A DNA stretch of 64,000 nt from a virus (taxonomy: Duplodnaviria; Heunggongvirae; Uroviricota; Caudoviricetes): the IMG/VR virus record IMGVR_UViG_3300021387_000074, one strand, 5' to 3'. Within the stretch, counting starts at the first letter, position 1. Every line of letters begins with the position of its first letter. Made by a program: the position numbers and the translations under genes. Positions 2,880-49,504 of the stretch are shown one piece after another. The notes under the pieces are model-generated. The model was not told the origin of the DNA. It did not search any database and was given only the letters and a program-made list of their open reading frames with translations.

Positions 2880-3400
2880 ATTGCCTCCTTGAATGATGTT
2901 ACATATTTTCCTTTTGCTTCTTTTTCTTCAAGAGAAGATCCTGGTATCTCAAACTCAGTGCCTCCATAATTGTCATCGTCGTCCTCATCATCTAAGCGTG
3001 GAACTGTAATTGTCAAACTAGGATTCCAAGCTGGAATACCTACTGGTTGACTTTGGATTACGCCTGACAACACGCCATAGAATTGCTGACAAACAGCAGG
3101 ATCAAGAAATTTTATGCTTATTTCTACATCCGTTGCACCTAGTGGGTTATATGCATCTTGTTTTACATTAGCAGCATACAACATCCAAGCCCCTGGATTA
3201 TCCATTAAAACTTGCATTGCTGCTTGATTACCTTGAGCTATCGCTGCTTTTGTGTAAGTCATGTAAGGTTGCATTGCTTGTTGCATTGATTGCCGCCATT
3301 GACTATAACCATCGTCGCTTGATGTAAATTCTACTTCATTTTTGTTTACTACTTCATTTCTATTTTTTAAAACTTCTCTAATTTTTGATGAAATCGACAC
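2876..3400 (-). CDS. Hypothetical protein, weak tail-tube-like segment
   Basis: GTG start with AGGAG RBS; YNPLG...ISIKFLDPA echoes tube protein YNPLTG...AQFDPAG. Confidence 0.6.
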   Translation of the reverse strand: MSISSKIREVLKNRNEVVNKNEVEFTSSDDGYSQWRQSMQQAMQPYMTYTKAAIAQGNQAAMQVLMDNPGAWMLYAANVKQDAYNPLGATDVEISIKFLDPAVCQQFYGVLSGVIQSQPVGIPAWNPSLTITVPRLDDEDDDDNYGGTEFEIPGSSLEEKEAKGKYVTSFKEAM

Positions 3401-4920
3401 TAATTACTCCTTGGCTGATATCTAATCAGCATTGCTCTAATGGTGTCTGGATTTGTAACCCAGTTTCTACTACCAAATAGAATTCCACCATTATCGTCAG
3501 GATAAACTTTCATAAGATAGAAACCTGTCAAAAGTTTTTCCTTTATATGTTCATAATATGACGCAAAACAAGGAATTGTCAACTCTTCTCCATTGCAGTC
3601 TTCGGCAGTTATGAAGCACATCAGTTTTCCATTCTTCTGATTATGACATCTTAAATCCTTTACATGAACAAATACATAAGCAGATGATTTATCAGCTTCG
3701 CGAATTTCATTAAAATCTCTAAGACATTTATTCAAAGAAACAAGTTTTTCAATCTTTGAAACCATATCATCTGAGAACACTCCGTGGAAGAAGCTACCAC
3801 TAAGATAGTTCTTTTCCATTTCCATATACTCTTCTGGAGTTGTCTTAGAATCAAGCTCGTGATTTTCTACTGTTTCATTCCAAATCTTTATAAGTTTTTC
3901 GGGAGTCTTAGTTGTCTTTTTGTTAATGTAAAACTCTTCAGTGATTTTAAGATATTTTCTTCTTTCACCTTCAGGTATTAAATTATCAAAAGCACCACCA
4001 CCAATTAACGCGAGAGTAATTCTTTTATTAACCTTAGTTCCAAGAGTTTTAATTATAAAATCAATAATACTCTCATAACCTCTGTGCTCTATAATATTTA
4101 GTGCTGGCTCTTCACCTACACCCTTAATCTCATTCAAACCAAATCTTATTTCTTTTTCTGAAACTGGAGTAAAATGAATGTTAGAGCTGTTAACATCAGG
4201 TGGTAAAATTTTAAACCCGTTTTTTTGCGACTCTTTAATAGAATCTTTTAAAACATCTGTTTTTGTTGCATCATAAGTCAAAGACGCTGCCCAAAAGTAT
4301 GGTTTGAAATAACGAGACATATAGAGTGTCTCACACGCAACATAAGTATAAGCCGCCGCATGAGATTTATTAAAAGAATAAGCTGACAAAGTAATCAAAT
4401 CTGCAGTAAATTCATCGATCTCTGCAGAAGTTAGTTTACTCTTCGCTTCTTCTTTAATCGTACTAACCAACTTTTCCCAGGCATCCAAATCTTCTTGCTT
4501 TTTATTTGCTTTACCGAGTTTCTTTAAAAGACCACGAGCGTAATTACCCTTAATTTTTCCGTTTGAAAGATCTTCTACGAGTTTCATAATCTCCTCTTGG
4601 AAGAGAATACAACCGTGAGAATCTTTCAAAAATTTAGATATAGGCTCTGGATACTTTGATCCTTCTGTTCCGTTTGCTACGAAGTCATCAAACGAGAAAG
4701 AAGAACCTGGTCTCGACAAAGCATTCAAACAAGTAAGTTCGTCAAAGTTTTGAGGAATTGCTCTCTGAATCATACCAGATGCAGTATTACCTGAAAACTG
4801 AAATATATTCGCTTGACTCTCATTTACTTGTTGAAATAATTGTTTATCTTCATATGACATTCCGTAATACAAGAACTCTTTTAATTCTTGCTTACTGACA
4901 TTTTCTTGTAAAATTTTCAT
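3400..4920 (-). CDS. dnaE: DNA polymerase III alpha (DnaE), C-terminal part (fingers, HhH, OB fold)
   Basis: IFQF, LNALSRPG, ILFQEEIM, YSFNKSHAAAY, LPPDVNSS, IRFGLNEIKGVG; start moved to ATG 4920 behind AGGGG RBS. Confidence 0.92.
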   Translation of the reverse strand: MKILQENVSKQELKEFLYYGMSYEDKQLFQQVNESQANIFQFSGNTASGMIQRAIPQNFDELTCLNALSRPGSSFSFDDFVANGTEGSKYPEPISKFLKDSHGCILFQEEIMKLVEDLSNGKIKGNYARGLLKKLGKANKKQEDLDAWEKLVSTIKEEAKSKLTSAEIDEFTADLITLSAYSFNKSHAAAYTYVACETLYMSRYFKPYFWAASLTYDATKTDVLKDSIKESQKNGFKILPPDVNSSNIHFTPVSEKEIRFGLNEIKGVGEEPALNIIEHRGYESIIDFIIKTLGTKVNKRITLALIGGGAFDNLIPEGERRKYLKITEEFYINKKTTKTPEKLIKIWNETVENHELDSKTTPEEYMEMEKNYLSGSFFHGVFSDDMVSKIEKLVSLNKCLRDFNEIREADKSSAYVFVHVKDLRCHNQKNGKLMCFITAEDCNGEELTIPCFASYYEHIKEKLLTGFYLMKVYPDDNGGILFGSRNWVTNPDTIRAMLIRYQPRSN

Positions 4921-4927
4921 GATTAAA

Positions 4928-7057
4928 TTATACCCCTGAAGCTTTATTTTGTAAATATGATTTTGATACAATTTTTACAATCCCATCGTCGTCTTCAATC
5001 TTTACAAGCTCTTCATTTACAGATTCTACCGCATTTGAAATTACTTCCAAAACAGTAATAGCCAAAAAGTCATACTTGATTACACCAAGTTCATCCAACT
5101 CTGTGTTTCCACCATTTTCTACAAACGCAGATGCTACTCCATCCTTTGTATGAACAACTGGAATATATTCCCAAACTGGTTTATCCATAATAAGACAACC
5201 ACCAGCGTGTTGACCTACTTGACGCACCTGTCCTATAATCTTTGGAGTGAAATCCAAATATGCTTTATTTCTCTGATAAGTTTCATAAAGTGCTGGAAAC
5301 TGTTCTGCATACATCTTCATATTCTCTTCAAAACTTAATTCATCATTAAGTTCTTTACAGAACGCATTACTTTCACCAAATGGCACATCACACTTTCTGA
5401 GAATATCTTTAATTGCGGATGCCAAGCCTACTGTTCCATAAGCCGCTACACCCATTACTCTTTCTGGACCATACTTTTCAATAAGCATTTGCTTTGCTGC
5501 TTCTTTTGCTTTTGGCTCAAAGTCTGTATCAATATCCAAGCCACCAGAACCACCACGCTTAATCTGAACAATTTCAAGCGGCTTTGTTAAATCTACTTTA
5601 TCTGTTTTACCCAAGAAGAATGGAAGAACATATCTATCATCACATTCTACTTCCATAATTTCATCATAAATAGAAACTTCTTTATCGAGCCACTTTGCTC
5701 TTCTTAATTCTTTAAGGGCACGGTCTTTATATTCTGGATATTCCTTTATTTTCTGAGCTACAATTTTCTTCAAATCGTCAAAGTTATAATTACGGTTCTT
5801 TGTTATATACCAATCACCTTTATAATACTTATAAGTATTTGATACCAATCTGTCGTCAGAAACAAACCTCTCGAACAACAACCCAAGTTTAATTGGGTCA
5901 ATTGCCCAAGAAGTAATTCCAAGACAAGCACATACCAAACTTCCACCCGCAGAACCACGGCCACTTCCAAGCATATATCTCTGTTCTTTTGCCCAATTAA
6001 TTACAGAAGACAAATTCAACAAATAACGATATGCACCTTTTTTCAAAAGTGTTTCAAGTTCCAACTCAAGTCTGTCTTTATATTCTTGTGGACAATCTTC
6101 ATAATCACAATTAAAATGTTTTGACAATCCTTCCTTTGCTAGTCTTACGAAATCGTCTTCCTCATCAAACGAGAATCTTGGCAATTTCATACCTGTTCCC
6201 AAAGGAATAACAAAATTACACTTTTCAGCAATTTTGTCTGTGTTAGCACACCACTGCTCTATCTGTTCGTCTGTATAACCATAATTCCAACCCTTGTTGA
6301 ACTGTTTGAAATCATCTACACTCTGATAGAACAACGATTTGCACTTATATGTATCATCACCTTCTGAATCTTCATCTTTTCTAAGGTTAAAAATAAATCT
6401 CTGAGTTTGCGCACCTTCTCTTGTTGCGTAATGCACGTCGCCCGTAATTACAACTGGAACATTATACTTTGCTGCAGTTTTTATAATCCAATCATTATAT
6501 TTCTTTTGATCTTCTACAAGTTCGTTTAACTGAATTTCAGCATAAAAGTTTTCGCCAAACTCATCAACAAATCTTTTAAAATAAGCTTCTGCTTTTTCTT
6601 CATTACCAGCCAAAACACACTGAGAAAATACAGAGGCCAAACAAGCAGAGCCTACAATTATTCCTTCTTTATATTGAAACAATTCTTCAAATGTATTTCT
6701 TGGTTTATAATAGAAGTGATCTTCATCAATGTTTGAGATATAATTCAAATGGCAAAGATTTTTCCAACCAGTTTCATTAGAAGCCAAAAGAATAATATGA
6801 TTATAATGAGTTCTCTTTCTTTTCTTACCTTCCATTGTTACCAATTCTTCTACAAGATATCCTTCCATTCCGAGAATTGGTTTTACACCTTTTGAAATCG
6901 CATATTGTTGAAATTTAAAAAGTCCAGACATCATTCCATGGTCTGTTAAAGCAAGTGCTTTATGCCCATTATTTACTGCTTGATCTACTAATTCTGTTAC
7001 ATCTGAAACTCCGTCATAGAAACTTCCATTTTTACTATGAACATGTAAATGAACCAT
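4928..7057 (-). CDS. dnaE: DNA polymerase III alpha (DnaE), N-terminal part (PHP and palm) with ~100-aa insertion
   Basis: HLHVHS, ALTDHG, TGDVHY (PHP metal ligands), GRGSAGGSLV, LLFERF, DIDTDF, HAGG, KYDFL. Confidence 0.95.
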   Translation of the reverse strand: MVHLHVHSKNGSFYDGVSDVTELVDQAVNNGHKALALTDHGMMSGLFKFQQYAISKGVKPILGMEGYLVEELVTMEGKKRKRTHYNHIILLASNETGWKNLCHLNYISNIDEDHFYYKPRNTFEELFQYKEGIIVGSACLASVFSQCVLAGNEEKAEAYFKRFVDEFGENFYAEIQLNELVEDQKKYNDWIIKTAAKYNVPVVITGDVHYATREGAQTQRFIFNLRKDEDSEGDDTYKCKSLFYQSVDDFKQFNKGWNYGYTDEQIEQWCANTDKIAEKCNFVIPLGTGMKLPRFSFDEEDDFVRLAKEGLSKHFNCDYEDCPQEYKDRLELELETLLKKGAYRYLLNLSSVINWAKEQRYMLGSGRGSAGGSLVCACLGITSWAIDPIKLGLLFERFVSDDRLVSNTYKYYKGDWYITKNRNYNFDDLKKIVAQKIKEYPEYKDRALKELRRAKWLDKEVSIYDEIMEVECDDRYVLPFFLGKTDKVDLTKPLEIVQIKRGGSGGLDIDTDFEPKAKEAAKQMLIEKYGPERVMGVAAYGTVGLASAIKDILRKCDVPFGESNAFCKELNDELSFEENMKMYAEQFPALYETYQRNKAYLDFTPKIIGQVRQVGQHAGGCLIMDKPVWEYIPVVHTKDGVASAFVENGGNTELDELGVIKYDFLAITVLEVISNAVESVNEELVKIEDDDGIVKIVSKSYLQNKASGV

Positions 7058-8759: not shown

Positions 8760-9557
8760 ATGGATAAAAATCAGAAACTTTCGCTTCTTAACGAAGAGCT
8801 TGATGAAGAGTCAGCTAACTACATTACTGAAGCAATTCAGTCGTGGAAGGAAGAAGTTATGGCTCAGCTTCAGGAAGAAGTTGAAAGAGCAAAAGCAGAC
8901 AAATTAGAAGAACTGGAAGAGCTTAACCTTAGATACCGTGAAGAGTTGAAAGAAGAATATTCTGACAAGCTCACAACAGCTCTTGCAGAACTTAAAGAAA
9001 GTGTTAAAGCTGATGCTACTGCTAACGTTTTAAAGAACAATCCAGAATTAAAAATTCTTGAATCTATAAAAGAATTGGTTGCACCACTTCTTAACGAAGA
9101 TTTTAGAGAGAATACTTATTCTGACACAATTGCTCAATTAGCAGAAGAAAATGAAGCTTTAAGAAGAGAACAGGAAATCATGGAAGGCGCTCAAACTCTA
9201 TCAGAACTTTTGGCTCCTTACTCTGATAAGACACAAAAGTTGGTTCTTTCTTTGATTAAAGAAGGAAGCCCAGAAGAGGTAACAGAACAGTTCTACACAA
9301 TTATGGAATCATTGCAGGATGTTTTCGGCGAAGCTGAAGACAACAATGAAGACGATGACGACACAGATGATGAAGACAAAGGTTCTAAAAAATCTGGCGA
9401 CGACGATGATGGTGATGACGAAGACGACGATGACGAAGACGAAGACGACTTAGACGAAGACTTCATTAATGAAGGATTTGACGGAGACGACGACGAAGAC
9501 GACGGAGACGTTCTTGGTTCTGTAAAAAACATTATGAAACAATATTCAATAAGATAA
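8760..9557 (+). CDS. Prohead core scaffolding protein (gp22-like)
   Basis: Coiled-coil, acidic, many (L/I)xE sites, Asp/Glu tail, directly upstream of MCP. Confidence 0.85.
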   Translation: MDKNQKLSLLNEELDEESANYITEAIQSWKEEVMAQLQEEVERAKADKLEELEELNLRYREELKEEYSDKLTTALAELKESVKADATANVLKNNPELKILESIKELVAPLLNEDFRENTYSDTIAQLAEENEALRREQEIMEGAQTLSELLAPYSDKTQKLVLSLIKEGSPEEVTEQFYTIMESLQDVFGEAEDNNEDDDDTDDEDKGSKKSGDDDDGDDEDDDDEDEDDLDEDFINEGFDGDDDEDDGDVLGSVKNIMKQYSIR

Positions 9558-9574
9558 TTTAGGAGGATTTTTGA

Positions 9575-11089
9575 ATGTTAAATACTAACTTTATCGAAAA
9601 AAATCAGTATGAAGAACAGCTTAACAATAGATGGGATTGGATTACTGAAGACATCGACGATGCAGAAACAAAACTTAACACTCAGTTAGTTCTTGAAAAC
9701 TCGTATCGTTATATGATTACTGAGGGATTAATCCCTAGATCTTGGCTCGAGAACAACGTTCTTTCAGAAGACGTTCTCGAAGAAGCTCCACAGATGAGAG
9801 GCGCAGTTGGTGATTATGTTATCCCTAAGGTAATGTTCCCAATCATCAGACGTGTTATGCCAGAACTTATCGCTAACAAATTGATTTCAGTTCAGCCAAT
9901 TCAGCAGCCAACTGGTGTAATCTACTACATCAACTATGACTACTCTACAACAAAGGGCGAAATCAAAGCTGGCGACGAATTCTCTGCTAACCCACAGCAG
10001 ACAACACCTGCTTTCGCTACTTGGTATTCAAGTGAAAAAATCGGACCATTCGTTGCAACTGTTGACAGTGCTAACGTTGGTGCAGACGCAAACGTTAAAT
10101 TTGTTGGTGGAAAGGCTATTACAGACTTCCTCGGAACAGATGTAACAAAATATAAGATTAAACGTTTCGAAGTTTACAATACAACTACTGGTAAAGCTAT
10201 TGCTACTGTTTACGGTGCAGCAGCTGGTGCAGCAGCAAATGTAACTTACGACGGAGTAAAGGGTGAATTCACTGTTAAAGTTCCAGCTTCAGCTATGGCT
10301 AGCGGAAAAGACAATGCATTCAAGGCTTTCTTGGTTTATGATCAGGAAGGATCAAGCTTCATTCCAGAGATGGAATTCCACATCGACCACATGAACGTTG
10401 AGACAACTGAACGTAAATTGAAGGTTAGATGGACAAAAGAAGCTGAACAGGATATGATGGCTTACCACAAGATCGACGTAGAACAGGAACTTGTAAAAGT
10501 TGCAGCAGTTCAGACAAACTACGAAATCGACCGTGAAGTATTGAGATTCATCGATGACCACATCATCACTGAACTTTCTCAGAGCCACAACTGGACAGAC
10601 GACGCAGCAACAACTGGAAACAATACTCAGGGTAACTACCTTGATAGACATCGTTGCTTGGCACAGAAGCTTTACGCAGCTTCTACAAAGGTTGCAACAT
10701 TCAACCACCTTGGACCATGTGATTGGGCTGTTTCTTCTCCAAAGATTGCAGCAGTTCTTCAGATGCTCCCAGATTGGAAAGCAGGAGAAATTGCTAATGG
10801 TAAGACAACTTACTACAACGCAGGTTCTCTCGGAAACGGTTCTTTGGCTATCTATGTAGATCCAAACAGAACTGGTGGACAGGAAGACGAACTTACACTT
10901 GGTTACAAGTCTAAGGATTCAACATACGGAGCTGGTGTAGTTTACTCACCATATGCTAACTGGATGTCAGGAACAGTTGTTAATCCAGACAACTTCAACA
11001 ACATCCGTGGTTTCTTCAACAGATATGCTTTGAGCATGGCACCAAGAGGACAGTACAACTACGCTCGTGTAACAATCAACAACATCTAA
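9575..11089 (+). CDS. Major capsid protein (T4 gp23-like)
   Basis: LVLEN, PIIRRVMPELIANKLISVQP..QPTG, RKLKVRWT.EAEQD, EIDRE, GVVYSPY. Confidence 0.95.
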   Translation: MLNTNFIEKNQYEEQLNNRWDWITEDIDDAETKLNTQLVLENSYRYMITEGLIPRSWLENNVLSEDVLEEAPQMRGAVGDYVIPKVMFPIIRRVMPELIANKLISVQPIQQPTGVIYYINYDYSTTKGEIKAGDEFSANPQQTTPAFATWYSSEKIGPFVATVDSANVGADANVKFVGGKAITDFLGTDVTKYKIKRFEVYNTTTGKAIATVYGAAAGAAANVTYDGVKGEFTVKVPASAMASGKDNAFKAFLVYDQEGSSFIPEMEFHIDHMNVETTERKLKVRWTKEAEQDMMAYHKIDVEQELVKVAAVQTNYEIDREVLRFIDDHIITELSQSHNWTDDAATTGNNTQGNYLDRHRCLAQKLYAASTKVATFNHLGPCDWAVSSPKIAAVLQMLPDWKAGEIANGKTTYYNAGSLGNGSLAIYVDPNRTGGQEDELTLGYKSKDSTYGAGVVYSPYANWMSGTVVNPDNFNNIRGFFNRYALSMAPRGQYNYARVTINNI

Positions 11090-11110
11090 TTTTAGAAATT
11101 AGTTGATTTA

Positions 11111-11142
11111 AACCCCGTTCGAAAGAGCGGGGTTATTTTTTT
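11111..11142 (+). terminator. Intrinsic terminator after MCP
   Basis: AACCCCGTTC-GAAA-GAGCGGGGTT followed by a T-tract. Confidence 0.85.
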
Positions 11143-11150
11143 GACAAATA

Positions 11151-11180
11151 AAAAAGGCTACCAAATTTGGTAGCCTTTTT
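11151..11180 (-). terminator. Bidirectional-type terminator downstream of flagellin
   Basis: AAAAAGGCTACCAAA...TTTGGTAGCCTTTTT; the same stem recurs at 32665-32695. Confidence 0.8.
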
Positions 11181-11225
11181 ACTTTTCTCCTTTCTATGGC
11201 GAGAACCCCTCCGAAGTCGCCGTTT

Positions 11226-12074
11226 CTATTTTAACAACGCTAATACATTTTGTGATTGTGAGTTTGCTTGACTAAGCATAGCGACAGAAGCCTGAGAAAG
11301 AACCTGCTGCTTTGTATATTCTACCATTTCAGTAGCCATATCAGCATCACGAATTCTTGATTCTGCAGCTTGTGTGTTTTCAGCTGCTACATTAATTCCT
11401 TTCTGTGCCATCTCCATTCTGTTCTGATAAGCACCAAGATCTGCTCTCTGCTTATTAACATTTTTCAAAGCTTCATCAAGTGTGGCAATTGTTGTATTTG
11501 CCTCATCAGGTGATGAAATAGAAATCTGATTGTCTTCACCCTGGATACCTTTCAGCCCAAGAGCAGAAGCAGTCATTGTTCCTATATATGCTCTGATATT
11601 CTGATCTGCGTTTGCACCAACCTGGAATTGCATTACAGTATCAGAATCTTTTGAGAATCTTCCAGTTAATAAATTCATTCCGTTAAACTGTGCTGAAGAA
11701 GCAATTCTGTCAACTTCTGCTACAAGCTGAGAAACTTCTACCTGAATCTGCATTCTATCTTCATCTGAGTATACACCATTTGAAGCCTGAACTGCAAGTT
11801 CACGAATTCTCTGAAGAACATCAGTTGTTTCTGCTAGATAACCTTCTGCTACCTGAACAAAAGAAACAGCATCTCCAATGTTTCTTGAAGCCTGATTAAG
11901 ACCACGAATTTGAGATCTCATCTTTTCAGATACAGCCAAGCCAGATGCATCATCACCTGCTTTGTTAATTCTTTCACCACTTGAAAGCTTTGCCATTGAA
12001 TTCTGTAAGTTTGCCGCATTAATTCCTTCTTGGCGACTAGCAAACAAACTTGCCATATTGTGATTTATTACCAT
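11226..12074 (-). CDS. flaB: Flagellin, spirochete periplasmic filament core FlaB type
   Basis: MVINHNM...[66 protein letters not shown]; 282 aa without a D2/D3 insert. Confidence 0.97.
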
Positions 12075-12078
12075 ATAC

Positions 12079-12094
12079 TACCCCTCCTTGGGTA
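12079..12094 (-). promoter_or_regulatory. CsrA-type hairpin over the flagellin SD
   Basis: mRNA UACCC-AAGGAG-GGGUA places GGA in a hexaloop 4 nt before ATG. Confidence 0.55.
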
Positions 12095-12101
12095 TAAAAA
12101 A

Positions 12102-12129
12102 TTATCGGCAGATTTCTCTGCCGACTTTA
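12102..12129 (-). promoter_or_regulatory. Sigma-28 (FliA) promoter for flagellin, coincident with a terminator hairpin
   Basis: TAAA-N16-GCCGATAA; spacer forms TCGGCAGA-gaaa-TCTGCCGA followed by a T-tract. Confidence 0.75.
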
Positions 12130-12130
12130 A

Positions 12131-12520
12131 TTATTCGTCCCAATCAAAATCTTCTTTGGCTTCGGACGCTCTCGAAGCTGCAGTTGCAACTCCTTTTCTT
12201 GTGCTTTCTACTGGCCCAGCAATTTCACTTGCTTTTACAATTGCGTTTTTTTGGATTCTTCTCTTGTTAGTAACAGTGTCTTTTACTAGACCTGAATCAT
12301 ATATAAAATAACCGTTATCTAATTCGATGTAGTTTCCTTTCATTAAAACAACATAATCATCGTCTGATATTTCTTGCCCAGTAGTTATTGCACCTACTTG
12401 CCTAACCTTTGCTAATCCTTTATTTCCGTTTGCGCCTTTTATGGCTTTTACAGTATAAGAATCAGCAAAAAGAAGACTTGTGAATAATGCTAAAAAAGCA
12501 ATCACAAAAAGTTTTTTCAT
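12131..12520 (-). CDS. Exported protein with Sec signal peptide
   Basis: MKK + hydrophobic core + LFA|D cleavage site; AAGTTAAT motif at 12541-12548 and GAGGAG RBS. Confidence 0.75.
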   Translation of the reverse strand: MKKLFVIAFLALFTSLLFADSYTVKAIKGANGNKGLAKVRQVGAITTGQEISDDDYVVLMKGNYIELDNGYFIYDSGLVKDTVTNKRRIQKNAIVKASEIAGPVESTRKGVATAASRASEAKEDFDWDE

Positions 12521-12550
12521 TTCGAATCTCCTCTTGTGTAATTAACTTTT

Positions 12551-13087
12551 TTAAATCAAATCCTCTCTTCCAATAAATGTCAAAGCCTTTGCACGATTTT
12601 TGTGAATTATATCATAGTTAGGATATGACAACTTGCTTGTTCCGCGGGTATGAGAATAAATCTCTGGGAAGAAATAGCATCTTGATCTAATATAGAAGAA
12701 ATTCCACAAATCTAAATCCTTGTTTTTTATGGCTCTTCCATCCTTTCCTTCTTTTCTTGCGATTGCATCCTTCAATGCCTCTGCAATACCAACGATTGGA
12801 ATATCGTCATCCTTATTTGATTTATAAACAGAACCGATGAAAACTTCTCCATTTTCACCTTTAATTGCCACCAATGTTCCGCGTGGCTTCGTTCTTTCAA
12901 GCTGAAGTCTTCCGTTTCCAACTTCCTTTCCAATGAACCCGTCGCGAATTCTCAAAGAAATGAAACCGTTGTTTCCATGTTCCTTTCTAAATTCATCAAC
13001 GAACTTCTGTGCTTCATCTCGTGCTTTATTACGAGCTTCTCTTTTCTCTGCTGCTCTCTTCTTAGCAGCTTCTTCAAATTTATTCAT
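12551..13087 (-). CDS. Hypothetical phage protein
   Basis: 178-aa ORF with AAAGGAGA RBS. Confidence 0.75.
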   Translation of the reverse strand: MNKFEEAAKKRAAEKREARNKARDEAQKFVDEFRKEHGNNGFISLRIRDGFIGKEVGNGRLQLERTKPRGTLVAIKGENGEVFIGSVYKSNKDDDIPIVGIAEALKDAIARKEGKDGRAIKNKDLDLWNFFYIRSRCYFFPEIYSHTRGTSKLSYPNYDIIHKNRAKALTFIGREDLI

Positions 13088-13100
13088 CTTTTTCTCCTTT

Positions 13101-13475
13101 CTATTTTAATGTTAAATGATTAGTCCATTCGTAAGTGCAATATACTTGTTTGGCCCACTCATACTTCTTTTCTTCTGCCATATTTTCGGGGCAGTAATGC
13201 ATTGACGTAACTTCCATAGCGGATTCAAGAGCTTTTCTTCTTACTAAAACATTATTAATATGTTTACTTTCAAAGAACTTATCAATCTTTAATGAAGTGT
13301 TTAAGGTTCTTTTACCAAGTCCATCCATATGTAAGATTGCCGAAGCAAAACTCGGATCATTATTTAGTTCTTCAACCGCAGAAATAGCATCTTTTAAAAG
13401 ACTTAAGTTATCAGCGTCCGTATAAACAATTCCGAGCCTTTTCATTTTTTCTTCAAGTTCTTTAATCTCACTCAT
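13101..13475 (-). CDS. Hypothetical protein, weak tail-sheath-C-terminal-like segment
   Basis: GKRTL...VRR...LESAMEVTSMHYCPEN. Confidence 0.6.
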   Translation of the reverse strand: MSEIKELEEKMKRLGIVYTDADNLSLLKDAISAVEELNNDPSFASAILHMDGLGKRTLNTSLKIDKFFESKHINNVLVRRKALESAMEVTSMHYCPENMAEEKKYEWAKQVYCTYEWTNHLTLK

Positions 13476-13476
13476 A

Positions 13477-14796
13477 CTAAAAATTATAAACCATTACTGC
13501 ATTTTTGTCAACACTTCCAACAGTTGATTGAAATCCTTCTTCGAATTTTTCCTCAGCATAAGATTTTCCAGATACACATGGTCTTGGCGCCCATTTAGAC
13601 TCACATCTCTTTCCTTGCCTGAAATGGTCAAATTGTTCAACCCCAAGATTTTCTGATTGACAAAGATTTTGCAGCATCAAGACTTCTCCAACTGGAGGAT
13701 TTTCGCCCCCACAGAGTTCTTCGTAGAATTTTAAAGTTTCTCTAGCTGCATCCCAAAAATTCCACTTTCTATGTTGATGGATTAATGGGTGCCTATCAAA
13801 ATCTTGAAATTCTTCGTAAAATAGCATATCAGGGCCAATCATTGAATATGCGGCTTTATCACCATTCTTATATGTTCCCATACCAAATGTTGAATAGCCT
13901 TGTTCATGTTCCCAGGCCATATCTGACAATGAATTAATATAAACATTAAAATCATCAATAATTGGTGATTTTGGCTTATAAAGCCTTGTAGCGGCAACAT
14001 TAAAATTGCCATTCAAAGTTCCTTCTGGGTTTATATAACCTGGAATATAAGTTCTTACCGCTCTGCTTATTCTTCTATAAACGTCTGCAGCATTAAAATT
14101 ATCCAAGTTGTATTTATTTTGATATAATACAGAGATAGTTATTTCATCTGGAAAGAAGCAATACTTATTTGTAAGTTTAAAAAGATCTTCCGTTAAAACA
14201 TCATCCCAACCTTGTTTAGTTGTCCAATATGTTATAAGATCTATAGCGATATTCATATCTAAATCTCTAGCGTATTGCATACACTGAAAAGCGTTTTGGT
14301 AATCGGGGATTAATCTGCCTTGTTCTATTAGAATATCATTATCAAAAGTCTGAAAACAAAATATCAATGTAGTAAAATTATGACTTTTTAATACGTTGAT
14401 AAACTCCTTAGTTATTAAAGCAGGATGAAGCTCTATTATTTTTCTAGGAGCTTTTTCTAAATATTCAGGCATAGATTTTAGGTATTTATCAAAGTCTTCT
14501 GGCGACAAATAATTAGGGGTTCCGCCGCCAAAATTAACCATTTCTATTGCCTGATTTTTTAGAATACTGTCATACTCTTTGAAGAGATGTGGCATATAGT
14601 CAAAATAGAATTTTTGAACTTCTTCTTCTGTATGATTGCTTTTTGGACAACCTTTATGCATACAGTAGCCACAATTGGCTTGTGTTTTACAGAATGGATT
14701 ATGTAGATATACGACCGTTGGTCTAACGTTTTTTTCCCACATTTTTCTATAACTAACGATGTCTACTACATTTCCACTAAATTCTAACATTGCCAC
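13477..14796 (-). CDS. HemN-like radical SAM protein with atypical CX5CX2C motif (start may be ATG 14790)
   Basis: VYLHNPFCKTQANCGYC, FGGGTPNYL, IELHP, QTFD. Confidence 0.85.
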   Translation of the reverse strand: MAMLEFSGNVVDIVSYRKMWEKNVRPTVVYLHNPFCKTQANCGYCMHKGCPKSNHTEEEVQKFYFDYMPHLFKEYDSILKNQAIEMVNFGGGTPNYLSPEDFDKYLKSMPEYLEKAPRKIIELHPALITKEFINVLKSHNFTTLIFCFQTFDNDILIEQGRLIPDYQNAFQCMQYARDLDMNIAIDLITYWTTKQGWDDVLTEDLFKLTNKYCFFPDEITISVLYQNKYNLDNFNAADVYRRISRAVRTYIPGYINPEGTLNGNFNVAATRLYKPKSPIIDDFNVYINSLSDMAWEHEQGYSTFGMGTYKNGDKAAYSMIGPDMLFYEEFQDFDRHPLIHQHRKWNFWDAARETLKFYEELCGGENPPVGEVLMLQNLCQSENLGVEQFDHFRQGKRCESKWAPRPCVSGKSYAEEKFEEGFQSTVGSVDKNAVMVYNF

Positions 14797-32664: not shown

Positions 32665-32695
32665 AAAAGGCTACCTATAATGGTAGCCTTTTTTT
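32665..32695 (+). terminator. Intrinsic terminator after tail tube
   Basis: AAAAGGCTACC-tataat-GGTAGCCTTTTTTT. Confidence 0.85.
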
Positions 32696-47603: not shown

Positions 47604-48328
47604 TGGATAAGGTAATCCTAGAAAGCAAGGAAACTGAAAAATTTATAATTGATAATGCATATAAGCACTTCTCTAAAGAAAAGAAAAACCCTCTTACTAT
47701 TAAAGAAAACACAGAAGTAATAGAAGAGGGTATTAAGTATTTTAAAACTTCACCACGTCTATACAAACTAGCATTAAAACTCGAAAAGAAATCACAAAAA
47801 TTTAATGAAGAAACTAAAGAGTTTAAAACAATGAATGAATTAGTTATGAAGATTAATGCCCTTGCTAACAATCTTGAACTCCTAGAGGATAAATACTATT
47901 TAGGAGATAAAAAGCAGAAACTAATGGTGAAAGCAGAATATCAGGCTACATTAAAGCAGTACAGTTCAATAATCAAAATGATGAAAAAGAGCGAAGTTGT
48001 AGACGTCCTTAAAGTAACTGGCAGCTTGGCTTGCACAGTAGCTTCAATGGCTTTACCTTATATAGCAATGAGCAAGTTCTTACCTAACCTAATGAGTGTA
48101 AACGCTATAGGAGAGGAAGCAGATACTATGAAAAAGGCTTGGCTTTACTGTAAGAGAGCAGGAGCTTTTACCTTATTTGGTTTACCTATTAAAATTACGA
48201 GAGCAGGTATAAATGCCTTAACAGGCGACGCCGAAACAAAGATACTAGCAAGAACGGATAGTCTACTAAAGACTTCTAATATAGACACAAAAGGATATGA
48301 CGAAGACGAGCTTCATCAATTAAGTTAA
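47603..48328 (+). CDS. Hypothetical virion-associated protein
   Basis: Coupled to upstream gene; N-terminal ILES/IEEG; two hydrophobic segments. Confidence 0.6.
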   Translation: MDKVILESKETEKFIIDNAYKHFSKEKKNPLTIKENTEVIEEGIKYFKTSPRLYKLALKLEKKSQKFNEETKEFKTMNELVMKINALANNLELLEDKYYLGDKKQKLMVKAEYQATLKQYSSIIKMMKKSEVVDVLKVTGSLACTVASMALPYIAMSKFLPNLMSVNAIGEEADTMKKAWLYCKRAGAFTLFGLPIKITRAGINALTGDAETKILARTDSLLKTSNIDTKGYDEDELHQLS

Positions 48329-49225: not shown

Positions 49226-49454
49226 AAATCCCCCACTAGAAGTCATAAGACACAATACTATGTCATTAGTACATTATGGCTTCTCTAGAGAGGAAGTAAT
49301 GTGGATGCCAGTAACGGAAGCGCAAGACTACATACTTCTTATTAACCAGCAGATAGAACGGGAGAATGGAGAGATAGAGTCCCCAGAACACCAGCAAACA
49401 GATACACCAACTGTTAATGATGTATTCAAGGGAAGCTTTAAACCACATATTTAA
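49212..49454 (+). CDS. Chaperone C-terminal extension, probably reached by +1 frameshift
   Basis: LVHYGFSREEVMWMPVTEAQDYILLINQQIEREN typical of the ORF following gp26; no SD; overlaps TTT TTT CGT. Confidence 0.65.
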   Translation, partial: FFVYKNPPLEVIRHNTMSLVHYGFSREEVMWMPVTEAQDYILLINQQIERENGEIESPEHQQTDTPTVNDVFKGSFKPHI

Positions 49455-49460
49455 AACAGC

Positions 49461-49488
49461 AGCGGGTTCGGAATGGACCCGCTTTTTT
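49461..49488 (+). terminator. Intrinsic terminator
   Basis: AGCGGGTTC-ggaat-GGACCCGCT plus T-tract, followed by AAGTTAAT at 49493. Confidence 0.8.
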
Positions 49489-49504
49489 ATTAAAGTTAAT
49501 AAGT

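Follow-up and report, generated by a model that had tools for sequence, protein, structure and literature searches.

What is a flagellin gene doing beside the major capsid gene of a tailed phage, and does it serve the phage or is it a stray piece of host DNA? The question is raised by a 64,000-nt stretch of the virus record IMGVR_UViG_3300021387_000074, hereafter the window, in which a minus-strand open reading frame (ORF) had been described in a first-pass annotation as an intact spirochete flagellin. The window probably represents 64 of ~233 kb of the genome of a T4-like phage, this size being suggested by an identical copy of the upstream neighbour's protein on a 233,198-bp contig and by the completeness estimates of relatives, which imply a genome of ~230 kb. 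The genes at the locus are the following.

8760..9557, plus strand: acidic coiled-coil gene, likely scaffold by its position ahead of the capsid gene, conserved there in 23 of 23 capsid loci
9575..11089, plus strand: T4-like major capsid protein Gp23, convergent with the flagellin gene (PF07068, E = 2.4e-55; phrog_138)
11226..12074, minus strand: flagellin, assigned to the FlaB3-type spirochete core by Pfam N- and C-terminal domains, PDB matches, loop length and tree
12131..12520, minus strand: 129-aa protein with a likely signal peptide, a small beta domain and a conserved C-terminal tail, an optional flagellin neighbour
12551..13087, minus strand: 178-aa phage gene upstream of the flagellin cassette, 97.8% identical in L002, L003 and L159

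The flagellin ORF begins with ATG, encodes 282 aa and is free of internal stops, and its product matched both Flagellin_N (PF00669, E = 5.8e-43, residues 3–139) and Flagellin_C (PF00700, E = 9e-26, residues 197–281) above the Pfam cut-offs. It aligned end to end with spirochete core flagellins, is without the outer D2/D3 domains and has D0, spoke and D1 all conserved (0.85–0.98), in agreement with the earlier description of a full-length spirochete-type protein with complete D0/D1. The same annotation had noted no further flagellar genes, and none was found by Pfam among 47 window ORFs, these being the likely genes among the 89 listed, with the open-ended last ORF left out. Other Pfam-matched genes in the window are those for DNA polymerase III alpha, dUTPase, a gp46/47-like nuclease, NrdD/G, prohead protease and baseplate, and a tail tube gene is also present; the acidic coiled-coil gene had no family match. 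The polymerase gene (3400–7057) is split over two ORFs, and in L001 and L004 its N-terminal gene is interrupted further by ~1 kb, possibly an intron or homing element. A HemN-like radical SAM gene (13477–14796) shows 47–65% among relatives compared with 85–98% for the adjoining genes.

Both junctions of the flagellin region belong to a natural locus. Contigs of four DNA runs were compared with window positions 9000–14000, and the junctions were crossed by contigs of three further studies and two further assemblies. A single 11,094-nt contig from another sample (X2) spans 9000–13834, two contigs from another study (X3) cover 10572–11342 with 0 differences and 11341–12809, a contig of X4 crosses the upstream junction, and a 27,677-nt contig from another study (X5) passes through both junctions. 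The same capsid–flagellin order occurs in L157, at 98.2% identity over 2,566 nt, and is repeated on the 165-kb contig of L159, and GC content is continuous along the flagellin region. These contigs and loci, together with the Pfam-matched phage neighbours and with the phage-context metagenome loci and phage-only clade described below, bear out the earlier claim that the gene is phage-encoded and not a host join, and speak against the assembly chimera that was named with it as a refutation. The X5 contig is without the 129-aa gene and has 800 letters in place of window 11234–11268, which may be another homing-endonuclease case. The sequence of a record labelled provirus (G001/L001) extends no further than the capsid stop codon; over 3,858 nt it shows 100% identity to L159, whose 165-kb contig runs on past the end of G001 into the flagellin; trimming at a host-like gene may be the cause of the provirus label.

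The protein is a FlaB3-type Treponema core flagellin, an identity that the first-pass annotation had omitted. Among PDB entries it matched 9PIL and 10PP best, at 386 bits, ahead of 10PL at 375 and 9PIM at 368, which by class gives 386 bits for FlaB3 compared with 375 for FlaB1 and 368 for FlaB2; 9PIL and 10PP come from the thin filament without a sheath that T. denticola builds of FlaB3, according to the accessible text of the structural reports (PMC13439194; bioRxiv 10.64898/2026.02.04.703737). The H3–S1 loop has 12 residues in the window flagellin and in 120 of 120 close relatives, 9–13 in all 27 phage loci and 11–14 in the host downstream (flaB3) class (80 of 80), compared with 17 in the host upstream (flaB1; 71 of 71) and stand-alone (flaB2; 4 of 4) classes, the rumen class labels being taken from gene order and loop length. 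The stretch absent from the short loop holds N147 (a FlaA sheath contact) and S152 (a glycosite) of FlaB1; D157, equivalent to the FlaB1 contact D162, is retained in 116 of the 120 relatives. The H4–H5 loop, for which the FlaB3 criterion is three residues more than in FlaB1/2, has 18 residues compared with 17 in FlaB1/2, matching rumen host flaB3 (79 of 80) and shorter than in T. denticola FlaB3. S115, S126, T137 and T166 are predicted to be the four FlaB3 O-glycosylation sites (S115, S126, T137 and T167 in T. denticola) and are retained in 119–120 of 120 relatives. E232–N233 is invariant in all 27 phage loci and all 120 relatives, and equally so in all host copies; the stretch Q88–Q96, which we take to be the TLR5-contact motif, is intact in the window flagellin and as invariant in host copies. 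Eight positions are almost fixedly different from host FlaB3, four of them in or near the N-terminal D0. The chromosomal arrangement of a flaB1–flaB3 pair was not found in the window, the flagellin being a lone gene in a phage context.

Comparison with host and environmental sequences suggests that the gene is a long-resident phage copy in a phage-only clade sister to host FlaB3. The closest copies in host genomes were 72–77% identical and nearly all titled Treponema (the 80 best-scoring of 627 hits, from a scan of 38 of 64 parts), which supports the earlier use of the gene as a pointer to the host genus. In the protein database at least 120 sequences, the top-ranked of 8000 given a score, were 86–99% identical, and several of these lie on contigs of 180–392 kb. 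Among metagenome loci (best 80 of 587, 30 of 64 parts), all 13 that were at least 80% identical had phage neighbours and host-context copies reached 78% at most. A phylogeny against Treponema FlaB classes had been proposed as a check. Our first tree, with 27 phage, 20 flaB3, 12 flaB1 and 4 flaB2 rows and with host rows picked as best matches to the query, separated the phage and host FlaB3 rows from FlaB1/2 with a branch support of 100, while monophyly of the 27 phage rows was supported at only 70; without five long-branch phage rows, the 22 remaining formed one clade (98/92) and the 20 host FlaB3 rows another (99/95). Grouping with the FlaB1 or FlaB2 class was not rejected by AU tests (p 0.078 each; lnL 42 lower). 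GC3 of the flagellin is 0.234, compared with 0.238 for the phage polymerase III gene and a median of 0.38 (range 0.22–0.67) for host flaB3.

Carriers of the phage flagellin include complete records of 301, 329 and 386 kb. No capsid matching the Gp23 of the window was found among large carrier records (0 of 12 and 0 of 5), the 386-kb record having a weak Pfam Gp23 match and yet a flagellin 87% identical to that of the window; from unmatched capsids with such similar flagellins we infer that the gene spread to unrelated jumbo lineages by phage-to-phage transfer. The INPHARED phage database, a check also suggested beforehand, gave 12 flagellin matches, all below 60% identity and none spirochete-type. 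A complete 142-kb phage record (G026/L034) encodes an unrelated non-spirochete flagellin of 270 aa at 48% identity; its leader has a textbook CsrA hairpin, and it represents a separate capture.

The gene appears to be kept intact by purifying selection, with dN/dS of 0.056–0.121 against the four closest flagellin alleles and 0.023–0.283 for 12 other flagellin pairs, compared with 0.21 for the neighbouring capsid gene and 0.027 for the 178-aa gene. It is nevertheless optional for the phage: among 13 capsid loci that extend 1.2 kb or more downstream, 2 have it at the window-type site. At one empty site (L004:7300–7345), which was compared with window 11190–11200 and 12105–12132, the -35 half of the promoter is joined via a shared 5-bp AGAAA to the 3' flank, which is likely a deletion scar left by loss of the flagellin cassette. 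In the 386-kb record (G019; L027:6001–6848) the flagellin is frameshifted near codons 45–59, either by decay or by assembly error, and L161 and L164 of the same lineage are intact.

T4-like phages carry free-standing, intron-less HNH homing endonucleases beside or within conserved genes, and these bring a replacement gene end. Similar events have affected the flagellin in relatives, where an HNH family is found at the gene in four phage groups (L002:4733–5575, L031:5119–5979, L164:3442–4380 and L268 upstream of 5001). HNH homing endonucleases (phrog_655, E 1e-39) separate the promoter from a 63% allele in L002/L003; in L031–33 one precedes a flagellin with ~80 replaced 5' codons; in L164 one is inside the 3' part, with a new 3' end completing the flagellin and the old end trailing the nuclease; and in L268 one lies before the flagellin gene. 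Each event leaves a full-length flagellin, with a replaced 5' or 3' end or allele. The likeness to T4-type intron-less homing thus lies in free-standing HNH genes with replaced gene ends; the differences are that the target in the relatives is a host-derived flagellin gene and that the locus of the window itself is without a homing endonuclease.

Several companion genes occur at phage flagellins. The 129-aa family is found beside the flagellin in the window, L157, L035, L162, L167, L163 and L166, and also at the empty site of L004; it spans three phage groups, is present in 0 of 80 host loci and is absent from L159 and X5, while a member in G020 lies far from the flagellin. The 129-aa protein gave no PDB sequence match at E ≤ 1, no Pfam, PHROG or NCBIfam family and no hit in 5 host genomes; its structural model (pLDDT 73) had no Foldseek match, and in the Atlas it falls into unnamed clusters with a weak FecR neighbour at 0.77. 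Of 30 virus records, 8 carried FlaA-like sheath genes, and the Gp23 group was not represented among these 8; Pfam FlaA was matched in 3 of 5. In other jumbo lineages the FlaA-like genes lie either close to the flagellin or away from it (L031:6961–7773, L035:8705–9538, L026, L036 and L163). These FlaA companions in relatives indicate the filament as the site of action. No TnpB family member was found among the 47 window ORFs, Rfam and tRNA scans of the window gave no matches, and TnpB was present in 4 of 21 virus records, adjoining the flagellin only in L266. There (L266:6160–7524) an IS200/605-type TnpB directly follows a phage flagellin, resembling a precursor of fliCP–tldR; it was considered as a TldR and set aside, the protein being nuclease-intact with D-E-D kept. 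A tyrosine integrase was found neither in the 5 large relatives nor among the 47 ORFs of this 64 kb of the genome, and two records are labelled provirus, one being G001.

The signals around the gene include a promoter-like box and an RNA hairpin, neither of which had been recorded in the first-pass annotation.

12102..12129, minus strand: predicted sigma28 (FliA)-like box, TAAA-N16-GCCGATAA, 27 nt before the ATG
12104..12125, minus strand: hairpin and T-run over the promoter, where transcription of the upstream genes likely ends (fold, z -4.4)
12079..12094, minus strand: hairpin TACCC-AAGGAG-GGGTA with the Shine–Dalgarno GGA in its loop, predicted CsrA site (fold; covariation)
11151..11180, both strands: bidirectional intrinsic terminator, same stem as 32665–32692
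11111..11134, plus strand: capsid-gene terminator

The sigma28-like box is the sole match in the window, with 0 mismatches, yet 38 of 100 shuffled sequences also matched at ≤1 mismatch. Similar boxes precede 9 of 23 phage flagellins (near-copies included), while the other 14 leaders have none within 160 nt, and the complete 301-kb record G020 has a single match, just before its flagellin. The window box resembles the mapped T. denticola flaB2 promoter, reported with -35 TTAA and -10 CCGATAA (PMC9481697, available text). The GGA hairpin is not unusual by energy alone, given its folding z of -0.46; in L158 and L160, however, both stem arms are altered around an invariant AAGGAG loop, a covariation pattern. 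The GGA loop is present in 13 of 23 phage leaders and absent from 10. Host flaB3-class genes have the sigma28-like box in 0 of 78 cases and the GGA loop in 3 of 78, compared with 53 of 68 and 68 of 68 for flaB1-class genes, and the phage therefore joins a FlaB3 coding sequence to major-flagellin control signals. The window leader has one GGA hairpin, whereas host flaB1 leaders have a hairpin plus a Shine–Dalgarno GGA. In the rumen flaB1-class genes (upstream copies of L037–L116) the box lies ~130–200 nt upstream, as compared with T. denticola flaB1, which is reported to be sigma70-driven.

Within the window there are exactly two copies of the terminator stem AAAAGGCTACC..GGTAGCCTTTT, at 11152 and 32665, with 0 expected from 100 shuffles, as the earlier observation of a stem shared by these two sites implied. 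Hosts carry fliW–csrA, with FliW in 2 of 2 host genomes; FliW was found in 0 of 15 virus records and CsrA in 0 of 5. Three further candidates were discarded: a sigma28-like match at 48210, obtained with a loose pattern, is intragenic and does not satisfy the strict one, a GGA-rich stretch at 49226–49504 considered as a CsrA sponge is a small ORF, and a phage-encoded FliA was sought among sigma-like genes, which occur in 2 of 15 records, that of G019 being nearer RpoD/RpoS than FliA by NCBIfam. Neither of these sigma70-like factors, in G019 (L240:1426–2163) and G013 (L241:1342–2070), was ranked as FliA-like with NCBIfam.

Contigs with phage-type flaB are present in rumen metatranscriptomes; they derive from related strains and possibly from DNA. 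Four RNA runs were compared, and X17 is apparently a second deposit of the X16 data. In X18 the capsid operon is represented, and one contig of ~93% identity spans 11244–13079; in X16 the flagellin region is represented by contigs at 11206–11450 (~96%) and 11698–12587 (~93%), and a capsid contig stops at the terminator, at 11138. The contigs are taken as phage-type because host flaB DNA reaches only 72% to the window over the gene and 76% in its 3' part. Such contigs are not proof of transcription, strand or level, and their depth does not allow expression to be ranked. The sigma28 start remains a predicted one, since the X18 contig extends across the promoter hairpin. No RNA piece bridging the convergent terminators was among those listed. 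In RNA run X9 the capsid and upstream genes are covered by identical contigs, and no flaB piece is among those listed.

We propose that the phage flagellin most likely co-assembles into the periplasmic filaments of the host, a reading drawn from sequence comparison that best fits the conserved D0/D1 and glycosites, the flagellar-type promoter and the FlaA companions of relatives. Host sigma28 would switch the gene on while the cell builds flagella, the host CsrA–FliW loop would restrain synthesis of the phage flagellin, and the product would leave the cytoplasm by the flagellar type III apparatus of the host, receive its glycans and join the tips of the filaments, giving more unsheathed core; promoter use, CsrA binding, export and co-assembly are all predicted steps. 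With an extra core subunit supplied during flagellum building, filaments would shift to unsheathed segments and the infected cell would stay motile, and the shift is expected because T. denticola FlaB3, a minor subunit there, builds a thin unsheathed filament. The benefit to the phage, at a guess, may be dispersal in a long infection or carrier state. In T. denticola, flaB3 under the sigma28 flaB2 promoter is reported still to support near-normal swimming (PMC9481697, available text), and the nearly normal result of this swap favours a working subunit over a poison. Points that count against this proposal include the dispensability of the gene, the phage leaders without the box or the GGA loop, the AU tests and a dN/dS of the flagellin that is not below that of its 178-aa phage neighbour. 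No integrase was found in 5 large relatives, and if lysis follows soon after infection, new filament could hardly be built in time.

Filament incorporation was one of four roles offered in the first-pass annotation and is the best fit of the four; titration of FliW is possible as a side effect, and a block to superinfection and modulation of TLR5 signalling are without specific support. As a regulatory decoy, the protein would bind FliW in the cytoplasm, and freed CsrA would repress host flagellin and other mRNAs without any TldR. A C-terminal Asn of flagellin is reported to be needed for FliW binding (PMC5466977, available text), and the invariance of E232–N233, the distribution of fliW–csrA between hosts and virus records and the single GGA hairpin of the window leader compared with the hairpin plus GGA of host flaB1 are all compatible with this role. 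That Asn is equally invariant in host copies, however, and does not discriminate, while D0, the spoke, the four surface glycosites and the FlaA companions of relatives would be needless for a pure decoy and the predicted CsrA site on its own mRNA would limit it; a decoy as the main role is unlikely. A dominant-negative subunit, quite unlikely in our view, would form a core incompatible with the sheath and slow infected cells, holding them in dense host patches. It would account for the short loop without the FlaA contact in all 27 phage copies and for the eight near-fixed differences from host FlaB3, four of them in or near N-terminal D0, and the available text of the T. denticola papers ties both loss of core–sheath contacts (PMC13439194) and higher FlaB3, which is also linked to protruding flagella (bioRxiv 2026.02.04.703737), to reduced motility. 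Against such sheath-shedding stand the FlaA-like genes of related phages, the retention of D157 in 116 of 120 relatives and the replacement of flaB2 by flaB3, for which the text available reports no obvious swim-plate effect (PMC9481697).

A role outside the filament, as a virion component, a decoy for flagellum-binding phages or a modulator of TLR5 on lysis, would fit the position next to the capsid gene and the intact Q88–Q96 stretch, but the gene is on the strand opposite the capsid gene, behind terminators, with a flagellar-type promoter, and lies in unrelated contexts in other lineages; the filament is periplasmic, D2/D3 are absent and the TLR5-contact motif is as invariant in hosts. In the study of the Enterobacter prophage FRphi, likewise, its authors found no support for phage resistance from a phage flagellin (bioRxiv 10.1101/2023.11.30.569447; PMC13418256), and we consider such roles very unlikely. 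That the gene has no function for the phage, being recently and passively acquired host DNA or the product of a chimeric assembly, is a reading favoured by its patchy presence and the one frameshifted copy; this reading is already largely refuted by the junction-crossing contigs of other studies, the phage-only clade, the phage-like GC3, dN/dS of about 0.1 and homing events that preserve the whole gene; its probability is now minimal. FliW titration and a sheath-shedding brake could act alongside incorporation. A tentative joint reading, which we think rather doubtful as a whole, is that several unrelated virulent jumbo phage lineages of gut Treponema share one transferred FlaB3 clade, some with a sheath protein as well, and that the gene, driven by sigma28, might switch filaments to the unsheathed form and lower host flagellins via FliW–CsrA instead of TldR, being itself targeted by homing and restored.

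Phage-borne flagellins are already known, although the first-pass annotation had omitted those of Enterobacter prophages. FRphi is reported to encode the flagellin FliCP together with TldR, to replace the host filament subunit and to alter motility (bioRxiv 10.1101/2023.11.30.569447; PMC13418256, available text). Both systems have an intact phage flagellin behind a host sigma28-type promoter, which here is a sequence match only. FRphi is a temperate siphovirus with att sites, an adjacent nuclease-dead TnpB silencing host fliC, and an external filament in which the effect lies in D2/D3; the phage studied here is T4-like with a genome of ~233 kb and no TnpB/TldR or integrase among 47 window ORFs, and its flagellin is a FlaB3 isoform with D0/D1 only, a CsrA-type leader and a periplasmic filament as the presumed destination. 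It is like Treponema FlaB3 (T. denticola TDE1475; 9PIL, 10PP) in its top bit score, short H3–S1 loop and four glycosylation sites, and differs from host flaB3, which follows flaB1 in an operon and is without its own sigma28 box or CsrA hairpin, in standing alone with both signals, in reaching 72–78% at best to host copies and in forming a separate clade. As in the Hag–FliW–CsrA system of Bacillus subtilis, in which the Asn for FliW binding is presumably Hag N255, a GGA hairpin is predicted over the ribosome-binding site and the C-terminal Asn is conserved; here only the flagellin and RNA site are on the phage, and FliW and CsrA would be those of the host. No paper on a spirochete-phage flagellin was found in a search of the literature outside supplements and most subscription papers, where virome gene tables could list such genes, and "phage-encoded flagellin" matched only TldR/FRphi papers; the spirochete, TldR-free form was thus not found in print.

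The 'host' flagellin gene may lead pipelines to trim phage genomes as proviruses, and metatranscriptomic flagellin counts can contain phage copies. The gene also provides a host assignment for a large group of rumen jumbo phages. Phage control of flagella would no longer be confined to temperate prophages of enterobacteria but would include large phages that apparently do not integrate, with a target organelle that is periplasmic and also sets spirochete shape, making immune or receptor masking an unlikely reason. The role of the FlaB3 isoform in thin as opposed to sheathed filaments is an open question in the 2026 structural papers, and the phage flagellins represent natural FlaB3 variants with which it could be approached in T. 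denticola.
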